Shown here piece by piece: positions 2,038-23,611 of a stretch of 24,000 nucleotides of DNA; within the stretch, counting starts at the first letter, position 1, and every line of letters starts with the position of its first letter. Under the pieces are notes generated by a model, which worked only from the letters and a program-made list of their open reading frames with translations, ran no database searches and had not been told where the DNA came from. This DNA comes from Candidatus Heimdallarchaeota archaeon (lineage in GTDB: Archaea; Asgardarchaeota; Heimdallarchaeia; JABLTI01). The DNA is taken from NCBI GenBank assembly GCA_019058275.1, contig JAHLVW010000045.1:81664-105663 (forward strand), given 5' to 3'. The position numbers and the translations under genes are program-made.

Positions 2038-2170
2038 GGTTTATCTGATTGACTTTATGAATATATGATATAGTTTTATATATTCTCAAAACTAGAAAGC
2101 TTAAAATAATTTCTTAGCTTAATTATAATTAACTACATTATTTAGTTAAGGGAATAGAAAATTGTTTATC

Positions 2171-9816: not shown

Positions 9817-10170
9817 ATGATAATAAAAAAGACAGCTGAAGAACCACTTTATGAGAACCCACATGGAGTAGAAGGGAAAAATCTCTACAGTTATACAAAT
9901 GCAGTAATAATTCATCTAACAATTAAGCCAGGTGAGTCCTTAAGAAGGCATATAACTCATACAGATGTAGCATTTTATGTCCTAGAAGGTAAAGGAATAG
10001 TCTTAGTAGGGGACGAGAAAATGGAAATAGAAAAAGATACCTTGATAGAAAGTCCTGCAGATATTGTCCATTGTTGGTACAATGAGAGCAATGAAAATTT
10101 GAGAGTTTTAGTTATCAAAGCACCAAAACCAACCGAACCATCAACGTTTTTGGAAGAACGAAAACACTAA
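9817..10170 (+). CDS. Cupin-domain protein
   Basis: 117 aa with a cupin_2 pattern: RRHITHTDVAFYVLEGKG ... ESPADIVHCWYNESNENLRVLVI. Confidence 0.75.
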   Translation: MIIKKTAEEPLYENPHGVEGKNLYSYTNAVIIHLTIKPGESLRRHITHTDVAFYVLEGKGIVLVGDEKMEIEKDTLIESPADIVHCWYNESNENLRVLVIKAPKPTEPSTFLEERKH

Positions 10171-10184
10171 AACAAACCTTCATG

Positions 10185-10200
10185 TAACGAAAGATTCAAA
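10185..10200 (+). repeat. 16-nt direct repeat, copy 1 (TAACGAAAGATTCAAA), upstream of the methyltransferase
   Basis: Exact match to 11050-11065. The two copies bracket the methyltransferase gene. Confidence 0.6.
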
Positions 10201-10253
10201 GAAATTAGCTCACTTTGTAATAATAGTGAACATACTTGTCAAGAAATAAATTT

Positions 10254-10829
10254 ATGTCCAATACAGAATATGATAAAAGCTTCACCCATTTTTGGGGCAT
10301 TAGGAGAAAAATAGCCCAATCACTTATTCCCCATGGTTTAAAGTCAGGTTTAAAGATCCTTGATGTTTTAGCAGGTCATGGATTTTATTCATATGAAATA
10401 ACCAAGATTATTAAAAAAGGGAAAATAATATCAATAGGTTTGCAAAATGATGTAGAAAGCTTTCAAAGATTCAAGTTGTCAATGAAAAAGAGAAAGCAAC
10501 AAAAATCGTTAGGATTAATAGATTATAGATTGATGGATATCACAAAGATTGATTTTCCTGAAAATACTTTTGATTTTGTTATTAATTTTCTAGGCCTAGA
10601 AGATGTAAATATGACTAAAGGAACTAAGGGAGTAAAAGACGCATTAAAGGAATGTTGTCGAGTGTTGAAACCAACAGGAACATTACAATTGACATTATGT
10701 TTAGAGGGAGATGAACCAGATCAGATCATTGCAAAAGAAATAACAGAAGCAATAGGACATCAAGCAATTTTCCATCCGAAAGAATTCTATATTGATGAAT
10801 TAAAGAGAAACAATAATAGAGGTAATTAA
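10254..10829 (+). CDS. Class I SAM-dependent methyltransferase (5' part; the 3' end appears disrupted)
   Basis: Motif I ILDVLAGHG. Post-I and motif III-like segments FDFVINFLGLEDV and LKPTGTLQL. The ATG at 10254 is preferred over the TTG at 10236. The frame ends at TAA 10827-10829, before a normal C-terminus. Confidence 0.8.
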   Translation: MSNTEYDKSFTHFWGIRRKIAQSLIPHGLKSGLKILDVLAGHGFYSYEITKIIKKGKIISIGLQNDVESFQRFKLSMKKRKQQKSLGLIDYRLMDITKIDFPENTFDFVINFLGLEDVNMTKGTKGVKDALKECCRVLKPTGTLQLTLCLEGDEPDQIIAKEITEAIGHQAIFHPKEFYIDELKRNNNRGN

Positions 10830-11040
10830 TGAAAAATGGTTCTACACAAAAAGGAAAATGACTTATGACCAAGCAAAAGAGGAATAGTCTTTTGCTTGTA
10901 ATGAAACACCAAAATATTTCAAAAACTTTGAGATCAAAACCATTCCTTTTGAGAAATTGTGGAACAAATATAGTAAAAGGATAAAGAAGTATGGTATGGC
11001 CTTTTATTCGCAATTGTTAGTATTAATAGGTAAAAAGTAA
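10804..11040 (+). pseudogene. Displaced 3' portion of the methyltransferase gene (frame 1, with in-frame TAG at 10885-10887)
   Basis: Frame 1 reads RETIIEVINEKWFYTKRKMTYDQAKEE-TAG-SFACNETPKYFKNFEIKTIPFEKLWNKYSKRIKKYGMAFYSQLLVLIGKK-TAA. That is 78 codons with one internal stop and no plausible start of its own. Confidence 0.5.
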
Positions 11041-11049
11041 ACTCTCAAC

Positions 11050-11065
11050 TAACGAAAGATTCAAA
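11050..11065 (+). repeat. 16-nt direct repeat, copy 2 (TAACGAAAGATTCAAA), downstream of the methyltransferase remnant
   Basis: Exact match to 10185-10200. Lies 10 nt after the TAA at 11038-11040 and 45 nt before tRNA-Pro. Confidence 0.6.
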
Positions 11066-11109
11066 AATCCGAAAAGAACAAAAAAGACTACCAAACGAGC
11101 GAAATAAAC

Positions 11110-11186
11110 GGCCGGGTAGTCTAGCACGGTATGATACTTGCTTTGGGAGTAAGTGGTCGCGGATTCAAATTCCGCCCCGGCCACCA
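11110..11186 (+). tRNA. tRNA-Pro, anticodon UGG, with encoded CCA
   Basis: Acceptor GGCCGGG/CCCGGCC, anticodon stem CTTGC/GTAAG with loop TT-TGG-GA, T arm GCGGA-TTCAAAT-TCCGC, discriminator A, CCA at 11184-11186. Confidence 0.9.
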
Positions 11187-11190
11187 TTAC

Positions 11191-11202
11191 TTTTGTTTTT
11201 TT
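11191..11202 (+). terminator. Oligo-T tract after tRNA-Pro
   Basis: TTTTGTTTTTTT lies immediately downstream of the tRNA 3' end. This is the archaeal-style oligo-T termination signal. Confidence 0.45.
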
Positions 11203-11261
11203 CTTATTCTTTTGTCATTTTAGTTATTATATCCTTAGTAATTATTTTTCCCTTCATTCAT

Positions 11262-11882
11262 TCATCTTTTCATTTTTATTGGATCATTTCTCTCTTCATC
11301 ATCTATTATTATAAACACTCCAACATTTCTTTTGATATATTCCTCTGTCCATTCTTTCTTAATCCTCCATCCCCCTGTTGCAAACACACCATTATCCATA
11401 TCGTAGAATGGTACATGTGTGTGGCTGATGATTAGTTTGTCTGTTGTCAATATCATTGGCAAGAAGTCAGAGCCTTTGTTTACTAATCGATTTTTTAGTG
11501 CATTTGCTGCTTGCCCCCATGTTTCATCTGCTCTTTTCACTAAACCGATATTATGTCCATGACAAACAATAATTCGCCCTTCCTTTGTGTTTAATATTGC
11601 CCATGGTAATACTTGAATGGTTGGGCAATCGAATAATATATTTCCTTCATGCCCCATCCCACCTGTTATGAAAATTATTTTTTCTTTCCATTTTTTATTG
11701 TCTATCCATTTTAAGAATCTCTTTAGCGCATTTTTTCCTTTTTCATCATAAGCATCTATAAAGTCGCCATTTAATATTATGAGATCTACTTTACTTGCAA
11801 CACTTTCTATTGCTTCTTTAAACTCCTCCTCTAAGCAACCATCTGCTCCTAAATGCGTATCACTAAATATCCCTGTCATCAT
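11262..11882 (-). CDS. Calcineurin-like metallophosphoesterase (MPE; candidate nuclease/phosphodiesterase)
   Basis: All five MPE motifs appear in order: SDTHLG (DxH), NGDFID (GDxxD), GGMGHEG (GNHE-like variant), VCHGHN (GH), ISHTHVP (GHxH-like). The start overlaps the helicase stop by 17-20 nt. AAGGAAAG SD. Confidence 0.82.
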   Translation of the reverse strand: MMTGIFSDTHLGADGCLEEEFKEAIESVASKVDLIILNGDFIDAYDEKGKNALKRFLKWIDNKKWKEKIIFITGGMGHEGNILFDCPTIQVLPWAILNTKEGRIIVCHGHNIGLVKRADETWGQAANALKNRLVNKGSDFLPMILTTDKLIISHTHVPFYDMDNGVFATGGWRIKKEWTEEYIKRNVGVFIIIDDEERNDPIKMKR

Positions 11883-14220
11883 CTTTCCTTATCATCTCCT
11901 CAAGCATTTTTCTTGTGCTGTCTTTTACTTTTTCTGAAGTATTACTCGTTATTTGACTTATTTCCTCATCTGCACTCTCTTGCAATAAGTCATGCATTGC
12001 TCTTAACACTCGCTTTATTCTTGTAAAAACCGCTTCAGCATTTCCTAACTCCCCTCCTCGATCATAAAGGGCAATCTTGTTTTCATAATAATTTGTGTAT
12101 GTACGAAATGATGACTCTGAGATATGAAGCTCTAATTCAATGCTTTTCATCAGCAATTCCTTTAACAATCTTATTGCTTGTTTCTTTTGTTCTTTTGAAA
12201 GAGCGTTTGTAAGACTTGCTACCTCAATAAGCATTCCACTTGTTTTTTCATCCCAAATGTGATTTTGTAGTTCATTTTCTCTTTTTTCCCTATTAATTAC
12301 TAATGGCGTTTCATTTTGAGTTGGACTCGTTGATTGGCTCTCAAGTAACTTCCCATCTTTTGAGTATCTCATTATTTCACTTGTTTCCCAACGAATGATC
12401 ATCTCACCAAATCGTATTGTTAGCTTCTCAAGTTCCTGCACTCTTGATTGCCCGTCAATGATAAAAAGAGGTGGTTTCATCCTGTTTCGTTCAACTGCTG
12501 TTTTGTTTATGTTAAGTTTATCAACAATTACTTTTTCGTTAGCTAACCTTTTTACTCTGTAAACTTTACCTTTACTTCCTAGATGTAATAGGTTCCCTGG
12601 TAGGGCTGAAAAGATTATGCGGCGCTCATCTATCGAAGCAATTTTCTCACTCTGATTTTCGTTAGTATTGTCTATTATCTCCCATCGTGGTTCTATCGAG
12701 CGGATTCGATGTTTCCTGATAAAAGCATTGACCCCATTTCTATTGGCAATAATCAAAGTCCTTTCAATAAAGGGCAAGTGATTGTTTTCAGTTGAAAGTA
12801 AACCTTTTGCAAACAATAATGCTATAGCTGTTCGTGTAATACTAGAATCTAATTCCTCTTTGCAAAAAGATAAAATATCATCAATCTTAGTTATGCCCAA
12901 AACCACCCTCAAGAGTACGAATGCTTGTGTTCTTTGCAGAGCTTTTGAGTCAAAGAGTATTCGTTCTGTTTTATTTTCTGTTAGAATCTCTTCTATTTTT
13001 TTGGGGTGATTCAAATAACAATTATCAATTGCTTTTTCATTATTGAATACTAATGAAAAATTCTTTTTCTTAGAAATATCTGAAAACCTTAATCTTCCCA
13101 ATCGTTGTAATAGACCATTTACTCCTGTAATTGGCCATGAAATATTTACTATATGAACGATATTTGGTATATCCATACCCAGCTCTAGTAATGATGTCGT
13201 AAAAACAAACCTTATTGTGCCATTATAAATTCCCTTCAGAATGTCTGTTTTTTCTTGACCAGTTAATTGACTATTAATACAAGCAAATGGCGAATGCCTT
13301 TGTAGGATTTCATCAGGTATGTTTGTTTTTTTCTTAAATAGCTCATTACATTTTGCTACCAACTCACCTACCTTTTGGATATCATCAACAAAGATCACGC
13401 AAGCCCCTTTTACTCTTCGCAAGTAAGGGTCTAACTTCTCTAATAGCAAATCTTCAATTGATTCTGGTTGAAGAATCATTACTCGAATAGTTCCTCTTGT
13501 TGCATTTCCGGTTATTATTTGAGCAGTTGGAAGGAATTTATCACGAAAGGTTTCTACTTCTTTTACTGTTGCAGAAGCTAGAACTACTCTTACTCTTGAA
13601 TTTATCTTTTTCAAGATCGCAATCATTTCTCTAATATGTGCTAGGTACCCTCCTGAACCTGCATGTATCTCATCAACAACAAAGACCCCAACATTAAGGA
13701 GCCAACTAAGAAAATCCTCATTGCCTTCTTTAAAAAAGCGATAGAACAATTTGTCTATGGTTGCTAGGAGGATTTTAGGTTTCTTCTTCTCTATTACTTC
13801 AATTTCTTTTCGAGTTAAATCTCCATTATATCTGCTATATGTTATCTTTTTTCCAGTTACTTCAAAGATCTTATTGCAATATTTTGCAATACGTTGTTCT
13901 TGATCCTCAGCAAGCTGTTTTGTTGGGTAGATTATAACAGCACAGTCTATTCTATTATTAGCAATGTCCTCAAAAATTGGAAATAAAAATGATTCAGATT
14001 TTCCTGAACCTGTTCCAACTGCGAGAAAACAATCATTTCTTTTGAGAATTGTGCTAATCGCTTCTAATTGATATTTATAGAGTTTATATGGCAATAATTC
14101 TTGGACACTTTTACCAATTATTTTCAAACCAACATCATCATCACCTACATAATAATCAGACACCTCACAATTTGATGGTGGTAGATCAAACACTGATTTC
14201 ACAGGAATTCCTTTTGACAT
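11863..14220 (-). CDS. SF2 DExH-box helicase with winged-helix and cysteine-less DUF1998-like C-terminal region (YprA/MrfA/Hrq1/DrmA-B-like)
   Basis: Motif I VGTGSGKS, Ia YPTKQLAEDQ, II VVDEIH, III ASAT, V TTSLLELGMDIP, VI QRLGRLRF. C-terminal IALYDRGGELGNAE resembles the LYD..PGG.G signature of DUF1998. The ATG at 14220 is chosen (GGAGGGATAAAG-ATG) rather than the upstream extension to 14262. Confidence 0.85.
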   Translation of the reverse strand: MSKGIPVKSVFDLPPSNCEVSDYYVGDDDVGLKIIGKSVQELLPYKLYKYQLEAISTILKRNDCFLAVGTGSGKSESFLFPIFEDIANNRIDCAVIIYPTKQLAEDQEQRIAKYCNKIFEVTGKKITYSRYNGDLTRKEIEVIEKKKPKILLATIDKLFYRFFKEGNEDFLSWLLNVGVFVVDEIHAGSGGYLAHIREMIAILKKINSRVRVVLASATVKEVETFRDKFLPTAQIITGNATRGTIRVMILQPESIEDLLLEKLDPYLRRVKGACVIFVDDIQKVGELVAKCNELFKKKTNIPDEILQRHSPFACINSQLTGQEKTDILKGIYNGTIRFVFTTSLLELGMDIPNIVHIVNISWPITGVNGLLQRLGRLRFSDISKKKNFSLVFNNEKAIDNCYLNHPKKIEEILTENKTERILFDSKALQRTQAFVLLRVVLGITKIDDILSFCKEELDSSITRTAIALLFAKGLLSTENNHLPFIERTLIIANRNGVNAFIRKHRIRSIEPRWEIIDNTNENQSEKIASIDERRIIFSALPGNLLHLGSKGKVYRVKRLANEKVIVDKLNINKTAVERNRMKPPLFIIDGQSRVQELEKLTIRFGEMIIRWETSEIMRYSKDGKLLESQSTSPTQNETPLVINREKRENELQNHIWDEKTSGMLIEVASLTNALSKEQKKQAIRLLKELLMKSIELELHISESSFRTYTNYYENKIALYDRGGELGNAEAVFTRIKRVLRAMHDLLQESADEEISQITSNTSEKVKDSTRKMLEEMIRKDDDRDI

Positions 14221-14222
14221 CT

Positions 14223-14774
14223 TTATCCCTCCACCAATCTTGCGCTGATAATGAACTCCCAAATTAACTCAACTTTATTTTTCAGAAATTTTTTGAATCC
14301 ATCATCGAAACCTTCCGGTGAGTATGCTTCAACTATTTCATCAACAGCTAAATCAATCATATCAATTTGATTATCTTCTTCTATAAATTCCACTTGACTA
14401 AGCATTTCTTTGATTCCCTGTTGAAGGAGTTCTTCCTGCTTCCTCATAGCAAAATTTCTTTCTTGCCTTTCTGCTATTTCATCAAGTCTTTGATATTCAA
14501 TTAACATTTCAGGTGGTAACTCTTTTCCAGTGGTCAAGCATAGATATAGCTTATTTAATTGAACCAATTTATCTTCCTTGAGCCAATATCTGTAAAGATT
14601 TCTACTTCCAACACGCTTGATCAAGCCATCTTGTTGTAATACCTCGAGAGTAAGATAGGTCTCACTGAGTGGTAAATTTACTTCAATAGAAATCTCTTTG
14701 GCACTCTTAGGATAATTGATACCATGTTTATTGTATTCCTCAAGCAAAAAGAGCATTACTCCAAGTTTATCCAT
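14223..14774 (-). CDS. wHTH DNA-binding protein with acidic/coiled C-terminal half
   Basis: wHTH-like N-terminus: YPKSAKEISIEVNLPLSETYLTLEVLQQDGLIKRVGSRNLYRYWL. The stop TAA at 14223-14225 lies 2 nt before the helicase ATG. An alternative ATG at 14756 shares one base with the upstream stop (TAATG). Confidence 0.7.
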   Translation of the reverse strand: MDKLGVMLFLLEEYNKHGINYPKSAKEISIEVNLPLSETYLTLEVLQQDGLIKRVGSRNLYRYWLKEDKLVQLNKLYLCLTTGKELPPEMLIEYQRLDEIAERQERNFAMRKQEELLQQGIKEMLSQVEFIEEDNQIDMIDLAVDEIVEAYSPEGFDDGFKKFLKNKVELIWEFIISARLVEG

Positions 14775-16252
14775 GATACAGGCAACTCCAACATTGTTTC
14801 ACGAAATTCATTAGTAATTGGTGATAATTGGCCAATTGTTCTACCATGCTTTTGATGATGTTTTTCTTCTCTATCAGGAAAGAGGAAAGCTAACTTTTCA
14901 AAATTAGTAATTTCATGATTCACTCTTTGTTCTATGTTTTTTGATCTCATCCAAACTAATGGTTGAAAATCTAATTTTTGTGTCTCCTCTTGGCAGATTT
15001 GGAAAATATTATCATTCAAATTCTCCCTAATCCCAGTTGGCAAACATTCCCACTCTAATACTAATCGCCACAATTTAACTGCTAAATTATCCCCGAAAAT
15101 TGAGTTTTTTATGGATAGGTGCTCCTCCTCTAACCTATTGCCTACATTTGTCAAGAGAAGATCAAATCTGTCGATTTCTTCCCTACAAGCATCTCTAAAA
15201 GAAGAATACTGTTTTCCTCGATAATAACAAGGGTTTTCGAAGAGTTCTTCCTTCTTTTCAAAAAGGATTTCGTATCCGTATCGTGTTACAGCGTAAGTTC
15301 TCCCCCCTTTGAACGCTGTTAACCGCTTAATTTCATCATGAGTAATTTCTTCAGCTAAGATGGCATCAACTAGCATGTAGTGACCTGCTTTCTTCAGTGA
15401 ATCACCAAAATCTAATGGTAACCCCATCCAAGAGAGATCAGAATAATAACTAAAGTGAGAGAAACCACCAACACCTAAATAGTTAATGCCTTTCTCTTCC
15501 AGAAGAGTCCATATTTCTTCTTCACAGAATTGATATTCTGTATTAAACAATACATCAGTAGGTGTTTGAGCCATACTGTTGAAGTTTCCAATCATGCGCT
15601 TGTGTCTGTAGAGACGGTCAGAAACTCTATGGCTTATTCCAAAATCATGTGGAGCTATTAGTTCATTCGTGAACTTCCAGAGAACCTCAGCAGCAAAACC
15701 TTCTGCAGAATTGCATAACTTGTTTGTATGACTATGATAACCAAAGAGATAAGCGTCACCGATTTTATCAATATGTTTCTTTAATGCTCTCTGATCAGGT
15801 AACATTTCTTGCAAAGTAAAAATAAGACTAAGATCACTCTTCATAGCTGTTTTCATGTAAAGATTATTGAAACCATTTCCTAATCTTATGGCATCAACAT
15901 AGCCTGCTCTCTTTGGTTCAATTCGTTCAACATTAAACCAACCGCAGAGGTTTGTTTTCCGCTCGTAATAGCAACCATGATCAAGTAATCGTTGCTTAAT
16001 CTCATCATCTATACCAGCATAATCAAAGATGTACTTGATATCTTGTAGCTTATATCTTACATCTCCAATATACAAATCATCATTGATTATTCGCACATCA
16101 TATCCTTGATAAATTGGAATTCCTAGTTTTGTTTTTACTTGCTTAATTTCATCTGCTTCCAAACCAGTTAATTTGTATATTTGATCATATAGTATATTGT
16201 TGCTATCTTTCACACATCGTATATACTGTTTTGTTTTATTTCTATTAGTCAT
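14756..16252 (-). CDS. Hypothetical protein (498 aa), no family recognised; His-rich motifs
   Basis: ATG at 16252 (MTNRNKTKQY), preceded by a purine-rich GAGAGATAAAA, 22 nt after the upstream stop. Contains GYHSHTNK, APHDFGISHR and GVGGFSHFSYY. The upstream extension to 16366 overlaps the preceding gene and is rejected. Confidence 0.7.
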   Translation of the reverse strand: MTNRNKTKQYIRCVKDSNNILYDQIYKLTGLEADEIKQVKTKLGIPIYQGYDVRIINDDLYIGDVRYKLQDIKYIFDYAGIDDEIKQRLLDHGCYYERKTNLCGWFNVERIEPKRAGYVDAIRLGNGFNNLYMKTAMKSDLSLIFTLQEMLPDQRALKKHIDKIGDAYLFGYHSHTNKLCNSAEGFAAEVLWKFTNELIAPHDFGISHRVSDRLYRHKRMIGNFNSMAQTPTDVLFNTEYQFCEEEIWTLLEEKGINYLGVGGFSHFSYYSDLSWMGLPLDFGDSLKKAGHYMLVDAILAEEITHDEIKRLTAFKGGRTYAVTRYGYEILFEKKEELFENPCYYRGKQYSSFRDACREEIDRFDLLLTNVGNRLEEEHLSIKNSIFGDNLAVKLWRLVLEWECLPTGIRENLNDNIFQICQEETQKLDFQPLVWMRSKNIEQRVNHEITNFEKLAFLFPDREEKHHQKHGRTIGQLSPITNEFRETMLELPVSWINLE

Positions 16253-16274
16253 TTTTATCTCTCTTTTTTTCCAA

Positions 16275-18350
16275 TCAATTTCTTTCTTGAATGAGCTTAA
16301 ATGATGAACCGCACCTTGGACACCTTGTTGGTGTTGAACCTTGTTGCGGAAAGGGTGCTGTACCAAATGCTTCTAAGGGGATCATTTCACCTCGCTCATC
16401 ATAACAGAATCGGCAAAAATGGGTATATTCTTCCTCGCCCTCTTCTGTTTGTCCATCAAATCTCTTTGGATTTGATCTATAGAATTCATCAATGGAAAAT
16501 TGCATTTCTATTGTTTCCTCTTCTAGGAATGCTTCGCACGCAATAGTATCTTTTCTGAGCATCGAGGTTGTAATATAATCCATTTTTTCTTTTGGTACTT
16601 TTCGTTCTGCTGTTTCTCTTACATCCCGCCAAAAATTACAATGATTTTTTTCATAATAATAGCAGTCTCCACATTTCTTATAGAAATACTCAGGAATCTC
16701 TTTTGTTGAATAATATGTTATTCTTTTCCCTTTTGGTGGTTTACCTGTAACAGTTTTTAGTGATAATAAATCGTTTTTCTCAAGACTAACTAATGCTCGT
16801 TCAACATCTGAACTTAATAATGAAAGGTTTAAAGCAATCAGAGTAAGTGTCATTGGAATTGTTGCATATTCTAGCTCTTCTTTGACAGCTTGTTCGATTG
16901 CTAACCGGTCTTTCTTTCCTATTAAAGGTACATCCATTAAGTCAAGGTTTTGTCCTATTGCTTTGCTGATAAGGCCAAAATTCTTTTTTGCTTCGGGTGT
17001 CATGTGCTCTTGAAGACTTGCCAATAATATTGATACTTTGAAAATAGTAAAGCTATCTTGTGTTCTTGAAAGAATTTTAGCAATAACCTCATCTTCATCA
17101 TTACCTTTAGTTTTCAACCTTCCAAGTACCATTTGTAAATCATCATAAGCTAATTTTCCATCAGTAAAATTATGGAAGATTTCCGAGATACAATTCCAAT
17201 CCAAAGTATCATTTTGTGTTCTATTTTTAATATTCAATAAAACGCCCATGGGATCTTCTCGTATTTCTTTGAAATATGTTGAAGCTATAAGGAACTTCTT
17301 GCCAAATGGCGTAAGAGTGTATATCCCTGAATTTTCTCTTACTTTAGAAATTAACGCAAAGTCACCTAGTGATTTTTGATATTTATCAAATAGACCTTCA
17401 GAGAAATTCCTTGGTTTAAACAATATTTCAATTAACATTTTTTGAAGAAAATCATGACTAGCTTCTAATTTGGATATATTTTGGAGTAATCGACAAATGA
17501 GTGAGTTTTGAATTCGTTGAATCATTTTGCTTTTTGATGGTTGTCCAGAATAGAGTCTTAACAACATTAAATATGGGAGAACAGATTGAAATTCTTCTTT
17601 AAGGACCTCTGGATTCAAATCTGAATTAAAGTAAAATTCGTGATCTCCTGAAATTTTAACCGCTGTTGTTACTATTAACATGTTCTTTTGTTCATCTAAA
17701 GGAACTAAACCTGGAGAGATGTAATGCATTCTGATGTTTTGGTTATTCGCTTTTCTCTTGAAAAACAAAATGCCATCTATATCAAAAGTAGTGAAGCTTT
17801 TTCTGGTTCTTCTTAGCGAGTCATTTTCTCTTAAAGGATCAACAAAAATATATGCGTTTGTATGTGGGAGATTAATTCTGTTCTTTAATTTAACATCAGA
17901 ACTTTTCCGATAAAGTAAGTTTCGAAGCAGACAATCATAGCTTGTAATTATCACACAATCATTTGCTGATGGGTAGCTGTTCCCTTTGAATTTTGAAAAA
18001 GTGGACGCAACTCGAATGGCATATTTATTTGATAAGGGATAAAAACCTTCATTGGATAAATTCTCAGTGGAAAAATTAGTTTCTTGATGAAGATTGAGCA
18101 TAGTGAATATCTTTCTTGCTTCATCAGCTGTTCGCACAACGATTATAGAAGATGAGTTGGCGAATCGCGAATTTAGAAGAGCTGAAGTAACAGCAATTTG
18201 TAATTGTTCATCAAGATCTGGTGTCACAAATAGCATATCTTCATCACAGCTTACTGCTTTCCGAATAGTAGCATTATCAACACCTCTTGGGAAGGGATAA
18301 TCTCGAAGAACTGTAGTAATGGCTTTTGGTAAAGCATTCACAAATCTCAT
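16275..18350 (-). CDS. Large multidomain protein (691 aa): degenerate SF2-helicase-like N-domain, wHTH, and two C-terminal Cys clusters (zinc-ribbon-like)
   Basis: ATG at 18350 (GGAGATTAAT-ATG) lies 1 nt after the upstream TAA. The N-terminus follows SF2 RecA1 spacing, but the Walker A position reads VTPDLDEQ and the DExH position reads FVDPLRE. wHTH-like LSSDVERALVSLEKNDLLSLKTV. Cys clusters: CGDC-x7-HC and CRFC-x28-CPRC. Confidence 0.72.
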   Translation of the reverse strand: MRFVNALPKAITTVLRDYPFPRGVDNATIRKAVSCDEDMLFVTPDLDEQLQIAVTSALLNSRFANSSSIIVVRTADEARKIFTMLNLHQETNFSTENLSNEGFYPLSNKYAIRVASTFSKFKGNSYPSANDCVIITSYDCLLRNLLYRKSSDVKLKNRINLPHTNAYIFVDPLRENDSLRRTRKSFTTFDIDGILFFKRKANNQNIRMHYISPGLVPLDEQKNMLIVTTAVKISGDHEFYFNSDLNPEVLKEEFQSVLPYLMLLRLYSGQPSKSKMIQRIQNSLICRLLQNISKLEASHDFLQKMLIEILFKPRNFSEGLFDKYQKSLGDFALISKVRENSGIYTLTPFGKKFLIASTYFKEIREDPMGVLLNIKNRTQNDTLDWNCISEIFHNFTDGKLAYDDLQMVLGRLKTKGNDEDEVIAKILSRTQDSFTIFKVSILLASLQEHMTPEAKKNFGLISKAIGQNLDLMDVPLIGKKDRLAIEQAVKEELEYATIPMTLTLIALNLSLLSSDVERALVSLEKNDLLSLKTVTGKPPKGKRITYYSTKEIPEYFYKKCGDCYYYEKNHCNFWRDVRETAERKVPKEKMDYITTSMLRKDTIACEAFLEEETIEMQFSIDEFYRSNPKRFDGQTEEGEEEYTHFCRFCYDERGEMIPLEAFGTAPFPQQGSTPTRCPRCGSSFKLIQERN

Positions 18351-18351
18351 A

Positions 18352-18954
18352 TTAATCTCCCTTTTCTTTTTGTGTTGAATAGTTACCAATTGCTGTGCTC
18401 CCACAATATTCCTTGATAATTGCTCTTAAATTTTCTTTTAATTCATCTTGTGACAAATGACTATTTTCTACTAAACTGTTCAAAAGTGTCTCAATAAGTT
18501 CTGATAAGTACCCCTTGTCTGTTTCTAATTGATTTAGAATATATGCTAACTCCTCTCTGTTCTTTTGTAATTGCTTAATTCCTCTCATAGAAGGTTTCAT
18601 CTGTTTTATTGTAATAGCAATTTGGAGATCAGGATAGTAAATATTTAGAATAAAACGGAATAATGGATTATTGATATTAACTTGATAAGCTTGTGTTTTT
18701 GAACGCTGAAGTTTGGTTAAAATATTGTTTTTCACTAGAAAGCTAACTAAATTATCTATTGTCCTTGAAGATAAGGATAGTTTTTCATCTATTTTGAATG
18801 CTTTTAATGAAGGATAATAATATACACCCTGATTTAATGCCTTATCAATCAAATATTTGCAGAAGATAGCTACTGAGTTTGTTACTTTTATTTTTGAACT
18901 GAATAATCCCTCATGAAAATATTGCTCTTGTACAACTGATATTTCAGAAGGCAT
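18352..18954 (-). CDS. wHTH DNA-binding protein (200 aa), first gene of the operon
   Basis: HTH-like LSLSSRTIDNLVSFLVKNNILTKLQRSK, with a helical C-terminal half. ATG at 18954. Confidence 0.65.
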   Translation of the reverse strand: MPSEISVVQEQYFHEGLFSSKIKVTNSVAIFCKYLIDKALNQGVYYYPSLKAFKIDEKLSLSSRTIDNLVSFLVKNNILTKLQRSKTQAYQVNINNPLFRFILNIYYPDLQIAITIKQMKPSMRGIKQLQKNREELAYILNQLETDKGYLSELIETLLNSLVENSHLSQDELKENLRAIIKEYCGSTAIGNYSTQKEKGD

Positions 18955-18981
18955 AATTATCAGTCTAATACTGCTAGATTT

Positions 18982-18989
18982 TATTTAAA
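18982..18989 (-). promoter_or_regulatory. Archaeal-type TATA box (TTTAAATA on the minus strand) for the six-gene operon
   Basis: Centred about 31 nt upstream of the ATG at 18954. This would give a very short or absent 5' leader. Confidence 0.4.
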
Positions 18990-18993
18990 AATC

Positions 18994-19060
18994 AATAAAT
19001 TCGCTAAAAAACAGAAAGCAAAGCAAAATCAAAAAAATAAATCGCGGAAAAACAGAAACG
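18994..19060. promoter_or_regulatory. Pair of about 25-nt direct repeats upstream of the operon promoter (candidate operator)
   Basis: AATAAATTCGCTAAAAAACAGAAAG (18994-19018) and AATAAATCGCGGAAAAACAGAAACG (19036-19060). About 21 identities with one 1-nt indel; offset is 41-42 bp. Confidence 0.45.
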
Positions 19061-19270
19061 GGAATTCATGTTATAGTTAGAAATCGTAATAATCCAGAAA
19101 AGCTCAATTTCACATCTGAAAAGAAGCCTTCTCCTACCTTATTTTTCGAAACGAGAGATTTCTTTAAGTCCCTTTAAAATTTCTAAAATTGTGTTTTTTT
19201 CTTTTTTTTTCAAATTAAAAGTGAAACTCACAAGAAATCATCTTCTAAATTCCTCTCAGAAGCTTGTGTC

Positions 19271-19337
19271 GGAACGACGACCGTAAAAGGGGCCCCCCAC
19301 GAAGTGGGGGAAATAGGTCGCACGAGGGGAGCGTTCA
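19271..19337. ncRNA. GC-rich nested-hairpin element (candidate structured RNA; strand unresolved)
   Basis: Three nested helices: GAACG (19272-76) with CGTTC (19332-36); CGACC (19278-82) with GGTCG (19316-20); CCCCCAC (19294-19300) with GTGGGGG (19304-10), closing a GAA loop. About 60% GC in a roughly 30% GC intergenic region. A T8 run lies on the plus strand about 30 nt downstream. Confidence 0.4.
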
Positions 19338-19424
19338 GCAACAGAGAAAGATATTATTGAAACTAGTTTTTTTTCTTCCGAATTTGTGAATTATTCTTTA
19401 CAGTCTTTCTCCACTGATAATTTC

Positions 19425-19445
19425 GGAATTACTCAAAAAAATTCC
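19425..19445 (-). terminator. Hairpin with T7 run downstream of the LAGLIDADG-HTH gene
   Basis: The minus strand reads GGAATT-TTTTTGAGT-AATTCC, starting 13 nt after the stop at 19458. Confidence 0.35.
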
Positions 19446-19457
19446 TTATAGGTAAAA

Positions 19458-21056
19458 TCAGTTTTTTGTTTGGAAGAATGTTTTAAGGTAAAGTTTTAGA
19501 ACAGAATTTAGTATCTTATTATTAGTAACTTTTATACCAAAATAGTCGCTTATATTTTTGTAAAGGATTTCTTTATTTTCAGATGTAGACAGGATAAGAA
19601 GATATCTATTCCGAAGTGATAAATTTCTTACAAGAGAGAGTAATTTTTCATTAGGTTGTAAGTCTAACCTTGCTTGTGTTTTACGAGAATGAAATAAATC
19701 AAGCTTATACTTATGTAAAAAAGGCATCAAATTTATTGGTGTACTAGAAATCATTAGTAATAGTTTTTCCAAAAGGGGTATTGGGAGACTATCACTATAT
19801 TCATATGAAGCTAATTTTCCTTTGGAAATCCCAAGGTATTCAGCTAAGTCTTGTTGTGTCCAAGAAAAATTATTCCGAACATTTCGTAAGAAAATAGTAC
19901 ATCCTACGACATGAAGAGTAGTAAGAAGGGAAAAGTTGAAGTAGTTTTCACCTTGTAATGAGAGAATCATTTTTGGATTAAAATCATAGATCAAAAAGTC
20001 TGTTGAGTGGTTTACTAGATTATACCTTTGTCGAGTTAGATATTCGTTAAAGTCTATCTTTTTAATCGGATGCCTTGGATGTAATACATTACTAAGGATG
20101 TCTTTTGAAATAGCTTTAATATTAACGGTGTACCCTGTTCCTAAATCTACTTCTCTTTCAGTTAATGAATATTTAATTTTATTTACATCTAAAACTCTTG
20201 CGAATTCATAAGCAAAAAATTTAGAGGAAGAGCTGAAACTAACATTGTCTTTATAACTGCCGTCTGCATCTAGTGCTCCAGACCAAAACTCCCAACGAAG
20301 ATCCTCGTCTGAAACAAAAATAAGTGGTTCTCTTAAAGCATGATACTTTTTACCGGTAATAGGTTGATCAGTTAAAAAATTGACTAATCGCACAAGCCAC
20401 TTATTATTTAGATGAAGTAACCAGACTTTTTTCTCACCGGTAACAGGCCCTTCAAATCCAAAAAGAGTTTTAGCTAGTGTTTGCATCATTTCCATGTGTT
20501 CTTTTGAAAAATCAACTATCACCACATTATGATAATTTAGATGCCCATCACCAATAACTGAGCCAAGAAAATAAGCTAAATCTCTACTTATTCTTGTAGG
20601 CATGTGAAAGTGTTCTCCCCGAGCAGATTGGAATGGAACATAATCTTGTGTTAGGAATTCTTGCCAGTGATCACTTAACCTGAATAGTGGAAAAGGTAAG
20701 CGTTTCTGATTCTCAGTGTAATCAATGATCTTTTGCTGCCACTTCTTAATGGAATAATCAATAGCTGTATCTTGAAAATAATGATGACTTCTCTCAGCTA
20801 ATGTTAATGATCGCTTACGTAATTTGCTCGCTAAATCTACTGTTAAAGAAATGTATGGTAATCTTTGAATCAGCCGTTCTCCTGCAAGAAAGTCGTGCTT
20901 GCGGATCATTATAGAGTAAAGGTTAAGTTTTCCTTGTTCTAGAAATATTTTCTCTTGCTTTTTTTGTTCTATTAACTTGTTCGCTGTTAACCATTCATTC
21001 TTTGGTGTTGGTTCCGTGTCTATCAGTAATGGATCATTTCGCCAGTTAAGCGTCAT
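19458..21056 (-). CDS. Free-standing double-motif LAGLIDADG endonuclease-like protein fused to an XRE-type HTH
   Basis: Motif 1 LAYFLGSVIGDGHL and motif 2 RWEFWSGALDADGSY lie about 95 aa apart, and both keep the acidic residue. HTH: FSWTQQDLAEYLGISKGKLASYE. The ATG at 21056 is preferred to the TTG at 21059. Confidence 0.75.
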   Translation of the reverse strand: MTLNWRNDPLLIDTEPTPKNEWLTANKLIEQKKQEKIFLEQGKLNLYSIMIRKHDFLAGERLIQRLPYISLTVDLASKLRKRSLTLAERSHHYFQDTAIDYSIKKWQQKIIDYTENQKRLPFPLFRLSDHWQEFLTQDYVPFQSARGEHFHMPTRISRDLAYFLGSVIGDGHLNYHNVVIVDFSKEHMEMMQTLAKTLFGFEGPVTGEKKVWLLHLNNKWLVRLVNFLTDQPITGKKYHALREPLIFVSDEDLRWEFWSGALDADGSYKDNVSFSSSSKFFAYEFARVLDVNKIKYSLTEREVDLGTGYTVNIKAISKDILSNVLHPRHPIKKIDFNEYLTRQRYNLVNHSTDFLIYDFNPKMILSLQGENYFNFSLLTTLHVVGCTIFLRNVRNNFSWTQQDLAEYLGISKGKLASYEYSDSLPIPLLEKLLLMISSTPINLMPFLHKYKLDLFHSRKTQARLDLQPNEKLLSLVRNLSLRNRYLLILSTSENKEILYKNISDYFGIKVTNNKILNSVLKLYLKTFFQTKN

Positions 21057-21104
21057 CAAGAATCATTCTCCAATAGCTTTGGTACGATCATACAATAAAA
21101 AGTC

Positions 21105-21314
21105 CTATTCTTCTACATACCATATCTGTGTTGGATTCTTGGTTACTCGAACCTTTTTCTTTGACTGAATTAAAGCTATCATCTCAATATATTCATTTAC
21201 AGTTCGCCAATTTAATCCTGTTTTTTTAGCGATCTTTCCCACACTTTGTGGTTCATCTGTTACCGTAGCCAATATCTGCTTGAAAATTTCCTCAGATTTC
21301 CTTCTAGAATCCAT
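21105..21314 (-). CDS. Small wHTH protein (69 aa)
   Basis: EEIFKQILATVTDEPQSVGKIAKKTGLNWRTVNEYIEMIALIQ is a typical wHTH recognition unit. It lies 45-48 nt upstream of, and co-oriented with, the LAGLIDADG-HTH gene. Confidence 0.6.
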   Translation of the reverse strand: MDSRRKSEEIFKQILATVTDEPQSVGKIAKKTGLNWRTVNEYIEMIALIQSKKKVRVTKNPTQIWYVEE

Positions 21315-21439
21315 ACTGAAACCCTCGCTATTGTATTCTTATTAAATATTGCATACTTATTTTATATAAACGCTAGCTTTATAAATATACGAAAGTATAT
21401 TATTATACAATATCATTGTAAAATAACACGGTGACACTC

Positions 21440-23599
21440 ATGTCTAACAAACGATCAAAAAACAAGCAAGTGGTTTATTCAAGTAATAAACCGGGGAGAG
21501 GAGTGAAATTCTCTGTTTATACTAACGGAGAAATTGTAATAGAAGGAGTAGGCTCTCAATATGGGTTAAACATTCCTGCTCAGTTAAAACAATGGTTAAA
21601 TCTTCCAGAAAGAAATGACTCTTTCAATTGGAAACTGAAAGCTGATCTTGAAATTATTTACGAGGATAAAAAGCATTTCTTGAAAGATATTTCAGTAACC
21701 ATTCTATTTAAATCGAAGAAATGGTTCATTAGTCCAAGTAATGTTCTTATCGAAGGAAAAAATCTTCGCAGCATACTTTCTGAGAGATCTGAATTGATCT
21801 GTTCTTTAATTTTACCTAGAAAATATTGGAGTAAAAAATATCTCCAAAGTATAAATATATTCAATTCTTTTAACTACAGCGAAAAATCAAATTTCAAAAC
21901 AATAGCTATTGGTGGAAAAGCAACAGGATTTTATGAAGTAATTCAAGACAACAAAAAACAATTTTTTATTAAATTAGAAACAAGTATGAGTGAATCAGGA
22001 GCTATACAGTTTCCAGCAGAATTAGCTCAGGTATTTAAGAATTGGACTAGCAACAAAGAATTATTCCTTTGTTTGTTTGAAGATGGACAGAAGCAAATAG
22101 TTGAAGCATCATTTGTTAAAGATAAAAGTAGACCTGAACGCATTCGAAAAGTATTGAATTTTTCTTATAATGGTGAAAGAAAAAATGTTTCCGTAATTTG
22201 TCACTCAAGTAATTTAGAATTATCATCTAAGATGAAGCAAGATGTTGAACTTAAACAAATATTAGTAAAGTTTGGTTTTCAATTAAAATCACTCAAATCA
22301 AACGTTTTTCCATTGGGAAGTCATAAAAACAAAAGATTTGAAGAAAAAGTAAGATTACTTTTTACTAATGCTTTCAATAAAACTGATGCGATAGTCAGAG
22401 ATGAGGTGGCTTTATCACCTAATTATTTAAAATCTCTCCCAATTGAAAGCCAGTATACTTTTGATTTGCTAGTATTTTATAAAAACAAGCAATTACCAAC
22501 ACCATCAAAACTTCTACTTCTAATTGAGATAAAATCATCCTTAGGTAAGAGCAAAACCAAAGTAATTAATGATAGTATAGCTAACTTGAAACATTATCAA
22601 ACGCATTTAGGAGAGGAAAATGTTCTACCAATTTTTGTTATGAATGCTGTATTCAATAAAAGAAAAAAAGAAATTATTGATATGTATAGTATTAAAAACG
22701 GTATTTTGATTCTTGACAATGATAAATTATGTTTATTCCGAGATCAACCTGAATTGTTAATTGAAACTATTCTTTCATTTAAACAAAAAATATCTCTACT
22801 GCAAAATAATCCTTTAGTTACATATCATCCACAAACTAAAGAAATTGTCAGTATAGAGAAGCTAAGAAATGAAGCATTAACATTACTTATCAATAAATCG
22901 AAGGGGGAGTTAGTTGACCGAAAAACTTTGAATTCTTATTGCATGTTAATGAATATTCGTAAAGCAGATTTCAATCGGTTATACCATTACTATGAGTCAG
23001 CTGTTAATGAAAATCATTCGATGACATCTTCATTAACTCCTCCTATTTATAAAAATAAAAGTACAATTATTTACAAAGCCATACACAATCATTTGTGTGA
23101 AAACGGTTCTGTTTCCATGATTCAAAAAATACCACAACAATGCTTTAATCGATCAAACTCTGAATTAAGACTGCATTCTCAACAAATCTATGATTTTCTA
23201 CCAAAAGAAATGCATGTTGTGGGTTTGAAAGAATATAACCATCAAGGTAAAACCTATGAAAAAATCATTCAAAAAGAACTAGAATCAAAAAAATATGAAG
23301 TAATACCTAACATCTTATTCTATTTTGCATTTCGATTAATTGAAATTGATTTATTTGCATTGAGAGAAAAGGAGCTTCTTCTTACCAGCTGCAAAAATAT
23401 GAGTAGTTTTGTTGACTTCCCACAAACTACAGTGGCGATTAAAAGAGCTGTTAAATTATTATCTTATAGAAAACAATTATTGAATGCAGATAAAGGTTTA
23501 GTATGTGTTAGAGTAAATAAACAATTTAGAGATAAATTCAAAAAGAAATTCAATAATAAAGTGTTTGCTAAGGATATTGAAGTAAAGATTACTGATTAG
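21440..23599 (+). CDS. Large protein (719 aa) with a central PD-(D/E)xK nuclease signature and a second degenerate one at the C-terminus
   Basis: FEEKVRLLF ... YTFDLLVFYKNKQLPTPSKLLLLIEIKSS gives an E...D...ExK pattern. The C-terminus has YEKIIQKELESKKYEVIP ... LIEIDLFALREKELLLTSCK (D...SxK). Two N-terminal segments look like AbrB/SpoVT units (GLNIPAQLKQWLNLP and AIQFPAELAQVFKNW). The ATG at 21440 is preferred to the GTG at 21431. TAG stop. Confidence 0.7.
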   Translation: MSNKRSKNKQVVYSSNKPGRGVKFSVYTNGEIVIEGVGSQYGLNIPAQLKQWLNLPERNDSFNWKLKADLEIIYEDKKHFLKDISVTILFKSKKWFISPSNVLIEGKNLRSILSERSELICSLILPRKYWSKKYLQSINIFNSFNYSEKSNFKTIAIGGKATGFYEVIQDNKKQFFIKLETSMSESGAIQFPAELAQVFKNWTSNKELFLCLFEDGQKQIVEASFVKDKSRPERIRKVLNFSYNGERKNVSVICHSSNLELSSKMKQDVELKQILVKFGFQLKSLKSNVFPLGSHKNKRFEEKVRLLFTNAFNKTDAIVRDEVALSPNYLKSLPIESQYTFDLLVFYKNKQLPTPSKLLLLIEIKSSLGKSKTKVINDSIANLKHYQTHLGEENVLPIFVMNAVFNKRKKEIIDMYSIKNGILILDNDKLCLFRDQPELLIETILSFKQKISLLQNNPLVTYHPQTKEIVSIEKLRNEALTLLINKSKGELVDRKTLNSYCMLMNIRKADFNRLYHYYESAVNENHSMTSSLTPPIYKNKSTIIYKAIHNHLCENGSVSMIQKIPQQCFNRSNSELRLHSQQIYDFLPKEMHVVGLKEYNHQGKTYEKIIQKELESKKYEVIPNILFYFAFRLIEIDLFALREKELLLTSCKNMSSFVDFPQTTVAIKRAVKLLSYRKQLLNADKGLVCVRVNKQFRDKFKKKFNNKVFAKDIEVKITD

Positions 23600-23611
23600 G
23601 ACTGCATTAAA

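Follow-up and report, generated by a model that had tools for sequence, protein, structure and literature searches.

What kind of genetic system is encoded by six closely packed genes that adjoin a tRNA gene in a Heimdallarchaeota genome and that fit no named system? The genes (g1 to g6, in operon order) lie on the minus strand between 18954 and 11262 of a stretch of 24,000 nucleotides with a low G+C content (~32%), hereafter the window, which represents positions 81,664 to 105,663 of contig JAHLVW010000045.1 (Candidatus Heimdallarchaeota archaeon, GenBank assembly GCA_019058275.1). A first-pass annotation, made from the sequence alone, had read them as a helicase-nuclease module serving either defence or the maintenance of a mobile genetic element (MGE). 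The answer tentatively favoured here, to which slightly less than an even chance is given, is that the genes belong to Heimdallarchaeia integrative elements of ~14-16 kb, which would insert at the 3' ends of tRNA genes in the manner of casposons, with the Cas1-like protein g3 as integrase together with g2, and with the helicase (g5) and the metallophosphoesterase (MPE, g6) processing the DNA. The operon would then be the conserved core of the element family and g3 the sole integrase-type enzyme inside it. We infer both the integration by the Cas1-like protein and the roles that the other proteins and the RNA would have.

The Cas1-like protein g3 and its partner g2

The gene g3 (14756-16252, minus strand; 498 aa), which had been regarded as an orphan, proved to encode a Cas1/casposase-like protein, the key enzyme of the cassette. 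A structure model computed with AlphaFold2 (AF2) from 19 homologues (predicted local distance difference test (pLDDT) 68.7, predicted template modelling score (pTM) 0.68) begins with a beta domain, continues with a helical catalytic domain and has an additional domain at the C-terminus; its strands lie at residues 45-98 and its helices at residues 113-300. When the model was compared with the PDB using Foldseek, the top 21 matches were all Cas1 or casposase chains (target-normalised TM ~0.5), the best one being the casposase of Methanosarcina mazei (6opm, E 5.4e-7). The conserved motifs are AEGFAAxxxW (E184, 15677-15706), GGFSH (H266, 15455-15469) and LPLDxxD (D281/D284, 15401-15421). In a widened alignment of the family (A8), H266, D281 and N237 are invariant, E184 is present in at least 90% of the members and position 284 is occupied by D, E or N; the H-x(n)-D-x2-D spacing resembles that of Cas1.

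A profile search of 1.84 billion representative proteins with the g3 family yielded 25 relatives, some of which bridge the gap to recognised Cas1 proteins. Regarding Pfam Cas_Cas1 (PF01867; gathering score 22.3), P0054 matched with 24.0 bits, above the gathering score, and P0051 with 21.8 bits; Cas_Cas1 matches occurred in 6 of the 16 members of A8, and no other family recurred. In an hhalign comparison of the g3 family with P0051 (96% probability), E184, H266 and D281/D284 aligned with the Glu, His and Asp-x2-Asp of P0051. On the basis of the fold matches, the bridging Cas_Cas1 relatives and the conserved E-H-D-D set, g3 was therefore filed as a very divergent Cas1/casposase homologue; as judged from sequence and model, its catalytic set is intact and it is a predicted integrase/nuclease. 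Since this set fits an integrase as well as a nuclease, it does not discriminate between integration and defence. In other relatives a PD-(D/E)xK nuclease (Cas4/AddB-like, PF12705) is fused ahead of the Cas1-like domain. A viral origin of the cassette was considered and rejected, as relatives of g3 are absent from the viral contigs of IMG/VR.

The preceding gene, g2 (16275-18350, minus strand; 691 aa), had been called a pseudo-helicase with a Zn-ribbon, and this description was borne out. In an alignment of 16 g2 sequences (A1), Walker A and DExH are absent, an invariant FxDP ('FVDP' in the window) occupies the DExH position, and three to four invariant Cys pairs are found in the C-terminal part; the Cys clusters of the window gene are located at 16638-16673, 16404-16415 and 16311-16322. 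The AF2 model (pLDDT 68) matched Hel308, PolQ-helicase and Brr2 in Foldseek at E 2e-5 and probability 1.0, but with a TM of only ~0.25. Alignment and model thus support the prediction that g2 is an inactivated Hel308/Ski2-like helicase with winged helix-turn-helix (wHTH) domains and two C-terminal Zn-ribbons. Pfam yielded no match for either g2 or g3.

Two remote relatives combine the two proteins. P0041 is a fusion of 1215 aa in which residues 38-724 match g2 (hhalign 99.8%) and residues 722-1197 match g3, and in L109_998 the C-terminal half of g2 is fused to g3. Both fusions argue for a physical complex of g2 and g3.

tRNA flanks and evidence for mobility

The MPE end of the operon lies, as the first-pass annotation had reported, next to a tRNA gene, tRNA-Pro(TGG) (11110-11186, plus strand; ARAGORN and Rfam), which is encoded on the opposite strand and whose 3' end is 75 nt from the stop codon of the MPE gene. 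The 3' 30 nt of this tRNA plus 3 nt (11157-11189, from the T-arm to CCA) form a repeat resembling a left attachment site (attL). Its counterpart was located on Logan contig L112 (8.2 kb), which is 100% identical to window positions 17249-24000 and extends to window-equivalent position 25438: an attR-like copy, TCGCGGATTCGAATTCCGCCCCAGCTACCATTA, at window-equivalent 25382-25414 agrees with 11157-11189 at 30 of 33 positions and has the same orientation. With the tRNA-Pro repeat at both ends, the window element, which runs past the right edge of the window, is therefore ~14.2 kb long and has attL/attR-like direct repeats. The six genes had been treated as the complete unit; they are in fact part of an att-flanked element of ~14 kb that also carries a LAGLIDADG-HTH gene, a non-coding element and further genes.

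Related cassettes (loci L001 to L010 and L075, see below) show the same arrangement at other tRNA genes. In L006 and L010 an intron-containing tRNA-Ala(TGC) takes the same position by the MPE end. In L001 a tRNA-like sequence (region 17101-17350), for which ARAGORN makes no call, begins 2 nt past the MPE stop codon and seems to be interrupted by several insertions. In total, the 3' flank can be read in seven cassettes, and in four of them the MPE end abuts the 3' end of a tRNA or tRNA-like sequence, three different tRNAs being involved. L010 contains two head-to-tail cassettes, the upstream one ending in the 3' 36 nt of tRNA-Ala (35/36) and the downstream one at the complete tRNA; the last ~205 nt of both cassette ends are ~95% identical, the remaining MPE gene being much more divergent. 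The second element of L010 measures ~16.4 kb and has an MmeI-family type IIG restriction-modification gene as cargo. Remnants occur around L001, namely a 107-nt copy of the MPE 3' end, an inverted 210-nt copy of the LAGLIDADG 3' end and a duplicated tRNA-like segment. Contigs often break at cassette ends.

Among the open reading frames (ORFs) between the repeats of the window element and of L010, no tyrosine or serine recombinase, no family-B DNA polymerase (PolB) and no other polymerase was found, and a repeat search detected no CRISPR-like array in the window from 10800 onward. The genes that flank the cassettes vary from locus to locus. The cassettes thus occupy different, variable, tRNA-linked positions and not one syntenic housekeeping position, because the flanking genes differ between the loci. 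Of the two options left by the first-pass annotation, defence or MGE maintenance, the MGE option is favoured by these differing tRNA-linked positions.

Several further observations were made in the flanking regions. The tRNA-like duplication of L001 spans 3.4 kb (17160-17350 versus 20584-20774; 191 nt at 82%, with a 132-nt core at 93%; repeat search), and between its copies lie a 427-aa gene and a LAGLIDADG gene fragment. Near the start of the window, the last 20 nt of tRNA-Thr(TGT) (350-426; tRNA positions 57-76, window 406-425) are repeated exactly and in the same orientation at 2018-2037; the two copies bracket ~1.6 kb with an aldo/keto reductase gene (588-1526), a 90-aa ORF and no integrase, and are possibly the scar of another tRNA-targeted insertion. 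An intron-containing tRNA-Arg(TCT) is situated immediately upstream of the LAGLIDADG gene in L002. TnpB/Cas12f-like (OrfB_IS605) genes are found beside cassettes in L002 (1658-3503), L113 (8336-9832) and L110 (643-2496), and MazE-like antitoxin genes in L001 and L002. LVIVD-repeat genes occur ~10-15 kb from the cassette in the window (2162-2815) and in L001 (1490-2056), which is probably coincidence.

Layout and conservation of the operon

The ORF listing and direct reading of the sequence confirmed the six co-oriented genes and all junctions of the first-pass annotation. The stop codon of g1 (TAA, 18352-18354) is followed after 1 nt by the ATG of g2 (18348-18350), and a gap of 22 nt separates the stop codon of g2 (16275-16277) from the ATG of g3 (16250-16252). 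Between g3 and g4 a TAATG overlap (14754-14758) is present, with an alternative ATG of g4 at 14774; the TAA of g4, the dinucleotide AG and the ATG of g5 span 14218-14225; and g5 and g6 overlap by 17-20 nt (11863-11882). GGAG/GAGG-type motifs precede the starts of g2, g4, g5 and g6. A candidate TATA-box-like sequence (TTTTTAAATAA / TTTTTAAATAAAATC; 18977-18991, minus strand), read from the sequence, lies ~25-35 nt upstream of the ATG of g1.

Every recovered locus (L001-L010 and L075) keeps the order g1-g2-g3-g4-g5-g6, although identity between the proteins falls as low as about 27-45%; for at least 10 Heimdallarchaeota loci with this order, identities of 38-81% were recorded. The arrangement is therefore not due to chance, and the six genes do co-occur outside this genome. 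Among 5.8 billion proteins, 18 homologues of g2 and 20 of g3 were found, and those with a named source are all from Heimdallarchaeota. Three cassette clades can be distinguished: A (the window, L003 and L006), B (L001) and C (L002, L008, L009 and L010), with a between-clade identity of ~40% for g2 and ~30% for g1. One metagenome-assembled genome (MAG) harbours three divergent copies of the cassette (HZR80_02600, _04530 and _07020) and another MAG two. Models of PADLOC, Pfam and NCBIfam place the cassette in no named system, in agreement with the first-pass annotation; only the generic helicase core of g5 was matched.

Some copies are interrupted. The gene g2 is split or frameshifted in L003/L004 (567+131 aa; 10001-12074) and at residue ~520 in L006 (10001-12071), g4 is split in L006 (13578-14125) and in L010, and g5 is split in L009 (14065-16358), which suggests that some copies are decaying or that the assemblies contain errors.

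Upstream module and structured non-coding element

Upstream of g1 the element carries a gene for a 532-aa LAGLIDADG-HTH protein (19458-21056, minus strand; Pfam LAGLIDADG_3, 26.7 bits at a cut-off of 22.5, and HTH_3/HTH_19). Its two LAGLIDADG motifs (VIGDGHL and LDADGS; 20538-20567 and 20256-20285) retain their acidic residues, an HTH_3 domain is present at 19800-19847, and the protein is a predicted endonuclease. The gene occupies this position in all nine Heimdall loci that are long enough (9/9); its homologues (n=63) are nearly all from Heimdallarchaeota. It is often accompanied by three genes: a 69-aa wHTH gene (21105-21314, minus strand; gene call on L112/L115, Pfam HTH_45 1.1e-6), a divergently oriented gene for a 719-722-aa protein without a Pfam or PHROG match (21440-23599, plus strand), and a 228-aa HEAT-repeat-like gene (plus strand; L112 gene calls, Pfam), of which the window contains the start only (23612-24000). 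On L112 the latter is followed by a TPR gene and then by the attR-like tRNA-Pro fragment. Homologues of the 722-aa protein with 24-29% identity lie beside the cassettes in L001, L006 and L010; from reading the sequence, its D...E-I-K strings look PD-(D/E)xK-like, and it may be a nuclease.

Located between g1 and the LAGLIDADG gene, ~330 nt of non-coding DNA are conserved and contain a GC-rich structured core of ~125 nt (19223-19349, minus strand; covariance model R1 and alignments). Its DNA is ~82% identical across clades whose g1 proteins are ~30% identical. Model R1 found exactly one copy per clade A or C cassette (98-150 bits) and none in L001, L108, L109 or L111, and Rfam gave no match at the gathering or the E-value threshold. 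The core consists of a closing helix, invariant GUCGC/GCGAC-type helices and a variable apical hairpin (19294-19310), which is constant in position and occurs with five different stem sequences. The outer (closing) helix shows compensatory changes (CG to UA, AU to UA), 89% of the cells being paired versus 25-52% after sliding of the partners. Most of the helices do not vary, so that the data fit a nested fold of the core as well as one with three hairpins. Some 50-100 nt upstream of the core, a second hairpin (UUCCGAA ... UUCGGAA; 19376-19428, minus strand) covaries in alignment A7, with UCCGA/UCGGA replaced by UCUGA/UCAGA in L007, by UCUG/CGGA with a G-U wobble in L008, and by UCCGUA/UACGGA in L005. 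The G-U wobble fits an RNA transcribed on the operon strand, and insertions or deletions of 1-2 nt in the element rule out a coding function; the element is a probable non-coding RNA.

On the side of g1, alignments A3 and A7 revealed conserved block 2 (TTYTAAAGGGACWTAAAGWAAYCT), followed by a terminator-like hairpin and U-run (19119-19179, minus strand). The central part of this hairpin (19119-19140) is inverted in the window, which reads AGGAGAAGGC versus GCCTTCTCCT in L002, L003, L006, L009 and L010 (blastn), the flanking stem being unmoved. In L007 a TPR gene is inserted between the LAGLIDADG gene and the non-coding element, and the element remains beside g1.

The relationships of this upstream module (LAGLIDADG phylogeny, 722-aa gene and RNA hairpin variant) are not congruent with the g1-g6 clades. 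Although L006 belongs to clade A and L010 to clade C, their LAGLIDADG proteins (66%) and their 722-aa proteins (47%) form the closest pairs, and both loci have one RNA variant and tRNA-Ala as target in common; for the LAGLIDADG protein of L003, a clade A locus, the nearest counterpart (78%) is that of L008, from clade C. The module has therefore been exchanged between cassettes.

When metagenomes were scanned with a 19-nt pattern of the RNA core, 97 matches were obtained, most of them chance matches in GC-rich soil contigs and seven of them true copies. An unrelated multi-copy repeat family shares a core of ~20 nt with the Heimdall element (TTGTCG[CT]GCCTCGCTCCGCTCGTGACGACCTACA ... TGTAGGTTGACCTGAACGAAGTGAAGCTCAAC). 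It reaches up to three copies per kb at a spacing of 176-657 bp on contigs of 34-45% G+C, beside simple triplet repeats, and forms a GUCGCG/CGUGAC hairpin with a GCUCCNCU loop; homology and convergence with the Heimdall element are both possible. The contigs concerned are L020, L023, L031, L033, L036, L039, L048, L054-L056, L070, L080, L082, L100, L102 and L105 (Ga0209081_*, Ga0209826_* and others).

Distant LAGLIDADG-HTH proteins (34-36%) are encoded in L113 (15213-21626) and L114 (12933-16532) beside giant TrmB-like-wHTH proteins of 1355 aa and 1199 aa; beyond the giant protein of L113 lies an MZB helicase of 1050 aa or more. The profiles of g2 and g3 gave no match to these giants, which perhaps represent the same system in an even more diverged form. 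A DUF1295/TrkA-PhoU/MgtE flank is common to L113 and L003, with its order rearranged in L113.

Helicase, metallophosphoesterase and small wHTH genes

The domain calls of the first-pass annotation stood for the helicase and the MPE; the DUF1998-type tail and both wHTH calls reached weak or sub-threshold scores only. The gene g5 (11863-14220, minus strand; 785 aa) encodes a superfamily 2 (SF2) DExH helicase of the SftH/MrfA (YprA) type, SftH (COG1205) being the archaeal name of the MrfA/YprA helicase family (PMC8301817). It matched Pfam DEAD (4e-29) and Helicase_C (2e-12), and its ATPase motifs GTGSGKS, DEIH, SAT and QRLGRLR are all intact. The match of its tail to MZB/DUF1998 was weak (E 0.022; 15.9 bits versus a cut-off of 24.2), residues 687-747 being Cys-less; clear MZB matches were obtained for the helicases of the related cassettes L108, L109 and L111. 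The best match among PDB sequences was YprA/MrfA (6znp, 4.9e-14), and the best PADLOC matches were to the defence helicases BrxHI, SngC, Cas3 and DruE.

The gene g6 (11262-11882, minus strand) encodes a binuclear MPE of 206 aa (Pfam Metallophos 1e-6, Metallophos_2 1.9e-6) with the motifs DTH (11847-11864), GD (11754-11771), GHEGN (11640-11663), HGH (11550-11564) and HTH (11412-11426); its PHROG match was 'DNA repair exonuclease' (5e-5). The first-pass annotation had proposed the MPE as effector of a defence module, and nothing shows such a role.

The product of g4 (14223-14774, minus strand; 177-183 aa) is a putative TrmB/Csa3-like wHTH protein with an acidic helical tail, according to sub-threshold matches to Pfam TrmB (4.5e-4, below the cut-off) and PADLOC Csa3 (2.2e-4). 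It is kept in all Heimdall cassettes and absent from L108, L109 and L111. The first gene of the operon, g1 (18352-18954, minus strand; 200 aa), encodes a putative wHTH protein with weak HTH matches; the sub-threshold scores on which the two wHTH calls rest are TrmB 4.5e-4 and HTH_Mga 0.008. The gene g1 evolves fast and was found in every Heimdall cassette, at 26-61% identity.

In the more distant loci the surroundings are of the same kind. L108 has the order g2-g3 fusion, MZB helicase, MPE; L109 the order 190-aa protein, wHTH-Zn-Cas1-like protein, MZB helicase, MPE; and L111 the order MZB helicase, MPE, followed by a 1166-aa protein with a Pfam-recognisable Cas1 domain. From these neighbourhoods it follows that the invariant core consists of the Cas1-like protein, the SftH/MrfA helicase and the MPE.

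Proposed function and alternative explanations

If the operon is the core of a tRNA-targeting integrative element, g3 may act as an obligate complex with g2, and the dead helicase g2 may serve, through its winged helices and Zn-ribbons, as a DNA-binding scaffold or ruler with a Cas2-like structural role. The helicase g5 and the nuclease g6 would act on DNA ends or gaps, unwinding and trimming them while the element is excised, integrated or replicated, and the wHTH proteins (g1, g4 and the 69-aa protein) would contribute regulation or site recognition. The LAGLIDADG-HTH protein and the adjacent non-coding element could form a separately shuffling module that sets target choice or regulation.

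A number of points weigh against this explanation. Neither g3 nor its close family has an HMMER match to Cas1 (Pfam, and profiles A2 and A8 against PDB sequences), and because direct detection failed, the Cas1 link needed the fold search and the bridging relatives; the AF2 models of g2 and g3 are of medium confidence only (pLDDT ~68). The flanking repeats of 33-36 nt are unlike the 14-15-bp target-site duplications of casposons, and repeats of this length are also typical of att sites of tyrosine recombinases, so that a tyrosine recombinase acting in trans may have made them. Terminal inverted repeats (TIRs) were not found, as the repeat search of 10800-24000 gave only chance-like AT-rich matches and comparison of the ends by eye gave none, and neither an excised circle nor an empty site was seen. 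L002, L003 and L009 have no tRNA at the MPE end, and in the only two comparable (tRNA-Ala) cases the target tRNA tracks the LAGLIDADG/RNA/722-aa module and not the Cas1 clade. IMG/VR viral contigs, as mentioned, hold no relative of g3, housekeeping genes flank L109 upstream, and pairs of helicase and nuclease are equally typical of repair and defence.

The best-surviving alternative, which we consider somewhat less likely, is innate defence independent of CRISPR: the cassette would be cargo of tRNA-linked islands and form a system in which the wHTH, pseudo-helicase and Zn-ribbon proteins would sense, the SftH helicase would translocate, and the Cas1-like protein and the MPE would destroy foreign DNA. 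The PADLOC matches of g5 agree with such a role, as do the patchy and rare occurrence of the family (~20 homologues of g2 and g3 in the protein search), the fast evolution of sensor-like genes such as g1, the several divergent paralogues per genome, the fusion of a PD-(D/E)xK nuclease to the Cas1-like domain in remote relatives, and neighbours that include MmeI-type restriction-modification, TnpB and MazE-like genes as well as N6/N4 methyltransferases. Koonin and Makarova predicted that some Asgard derivatives containing Cas1 are non-programmable defence systems (PMC8730458). However, the partner proteins match no PADLOC system model, nothing else in the att-bounded elements could explain their integration, and it is the whole element core that is conserved, whereas the classical defence genes (MmeI) are variable neighbouring cargo. 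The integrative-element and defence readings are compatible with each other.

A bolder version of the integrative-element reading, which we deem improbable, sees in the element an extant link from casposons to CRISPR adaptation. An integrase of the Cas1 family, in complex with a dead-helicase/Zn-ribbon ruler, would insert the whole 14-16 kb into the 3' end of a tRNA gene and thereby duplicate 33-36 bp, the length of a CRISPR repeat, and the separately exchangeable LAGLIDADG-HTH/RNA module would programme the target. If true, this would be a new, possibly RNA-assisted, mode of Cas1-mediated site-specific integration.

Even less probable is an RNA-dependent system in which the structured RNA guides, bridges, templates or scaffolds the Cas1-like complex, the LAGLIDADG protein or both in DNA cutting or insertion. 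It would account for a ~125-nt core that is far more conserved than the g1 protein, present once per cassette and subject to compensatory changes, and for the hairpin variant and tRNA-Ala target that L006 and L010 share despite their different g1-g6 clades. This correlation with the target rests on two loci, however, and neither the L001 cassette nor L108, L109 or L111 has the element; the transcript is a predicted one, and the element may instead be a DNA site, a cis-regulatory leader or the 3' untranslated region of the mRNA for the LAGLIDADG protein. Apart from A/T runs, the RNA is not complementary to the att regions, cognate pairs being no better than non-cognate ones, and a role of the element as a guide complementary to the att site was rejected, as no specific complementarity was found.

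The least probable alternative, a chromosomal DNA-repair operon of the MrfA/MrfB or Lhr-Core/MPE kind, in which helicase and MPE would remove lesions or process stalled forks, the Cas1-like protein would be a branched-DNA nuclease and the wHTH proteins regulators, can point to MrfA/YprA as the closest solved relative of g5, to a ligase-associated DEXH helicase as the best NCBIfam match (far below the cut-off), to the neighbourhood of MPE genes and Lhr helicases in other genomes and to the housekeeping flank of L109, but the extremely sparse distribution, the several divergent copies per genome, the non-syntenic sites, the att-like tRNA repeats, the tandems and the remnants are unexpected for a housekeeping pathway.

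Comparison with known systems

Family 2 casposons insert at tRNA 3' ends (tRNA-Pro in Aciduliprofundum boonei), use a segment of the T-loop as recognition determinant and occur in tandem copies (PMC9939771). The family 2 casposons of A. boonei and M. mazei share with the present element a Cas1-family protein as the sole integrase-like enzyme, insertion at tRNA 3' ends including tRNA-Pro, involvement of the T-arm region, head-to-tail tandems, and the presence of helicases, nucleases, HTH proteins and variable cargo. Unlike casposons, the present element lacks a family-B DNA polymerase as well as detectable TIRs, its repeats measure 33 nt (30/33) and 36 nt (35/36) as opposed to 14-15 bp, and its Cas1-like protein is beyond the reach of Pfam and HMMER and is paired or fused with a dead Hel308-like helicase-Zn-ribbon protein. 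It adds an SftH helicase, an MPE, a LAGLIDADG-HTH gene and a structured non-coding element.

With CRISPR adaptation modules (Cas1-Cas2, Cas4-Cas1 fusions, Cas1-Cas2/3) the element has in common the E-H-D-D set of Cas1, the association with a DExH helicase and a nuclease as in Cas2/3, PD-(D/E)xK (Cas4-like) fusions in remote relatives, a weakly matching Csa3-like wHTH protein and a duplicated target whose 33-36 nt fall within the size range of CRISPR repeats. It differs in the lack of Cas2, of a CRISPR array and of effector genes (there is generic similarity to the Cas3 helicase only), and its nuclease is an MPE and not an HD or Cas4 nuclease.

Regarding MrfA/MrfB (YprA/YprB) and SftH (COG1205), the DExH core of g5, the operonic nuclease and, tentatively, an MZB-type tail are shared, MrfA being the best match among solved structures, whereas the partner nuclease is here an MPE and not a DnaQ-like exonuclease, the MZB tail is sub-threshold and Cys-less, and the genes form part of a mobile cassette. 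In bacteria and some archaea, genes for Lhr helicases have a conserved MPE gene next to them (PMC8301817), and an SF2 DExH helicase adjoining a small binuclear MPE is found in Lhr-Core/MPE clusters as well as here; no ligase or exonuclease partners are present in the element. Membership in these clusters, which the first-pass annotation had cited as a precedent, was rejected (g5 scores 85.9 bits against a cut-off of 850 for TIGR04121), the helicase being closest to MrfA/SftH and not to Lhr, and the precedent holds as an analogy only. DISARM, Druantia, BREX, Shango and Dpd were likewise rejected, since only the helicase core of g5 matches (BrxHI, SngC, DruE); according to PADLOC, none of the partners in DISARM (DrmB/C and methylase), Druantia (DruA-D), BREX (PglZ/PglX) or Shango (SngA/B) is among the other five proteins.

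The literature searched contains no description of the cassette, and the paper on circularised Heimdallarchaeum genomes makes no mention of Cas1, LAGLIDADG or metallophosphoesterase; loci L003 and L009 (NCBI accessions) and L004 and L112 (sequencing runs) may stem from that study. This Cas1 family may already be among the diverged Cas1 homologues of Asgard archaea for which PMC8730458 cites Makarova et al. 2020 (CRISPR J). Most likely new are the g2-g3 partnership, the helicase-MPE core, the att structure, the shuffling of modules and the structured non-coding element.

Implications

To our knowledge, Cas1 integrases occur in two settings only, CRISPR adaptation and casposons, and casposons underlie the leading hypothesis for the origin of CRISPR immunity. 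A third setting, with no polymerase and no array, with tRNA genes as targets and with a helicase-nuclease pair and an inactivated helicase as partners, would widen the known functions of Cas1, in a system that occurs only in the archaeal lineage closest to the eukaryotes. It would, in addition, offer a test system for how the spacing of two integration cuts is set, here by the g2-g3 complex. Both this complex and the compact pair of helicase and MPE suggest themselves for biochemical study and, possibly, for the development of tools that insert DNA. For the poorly known Asgard mobilome, the element adds a candidate class of structured RNA and a new family of mobile elements.

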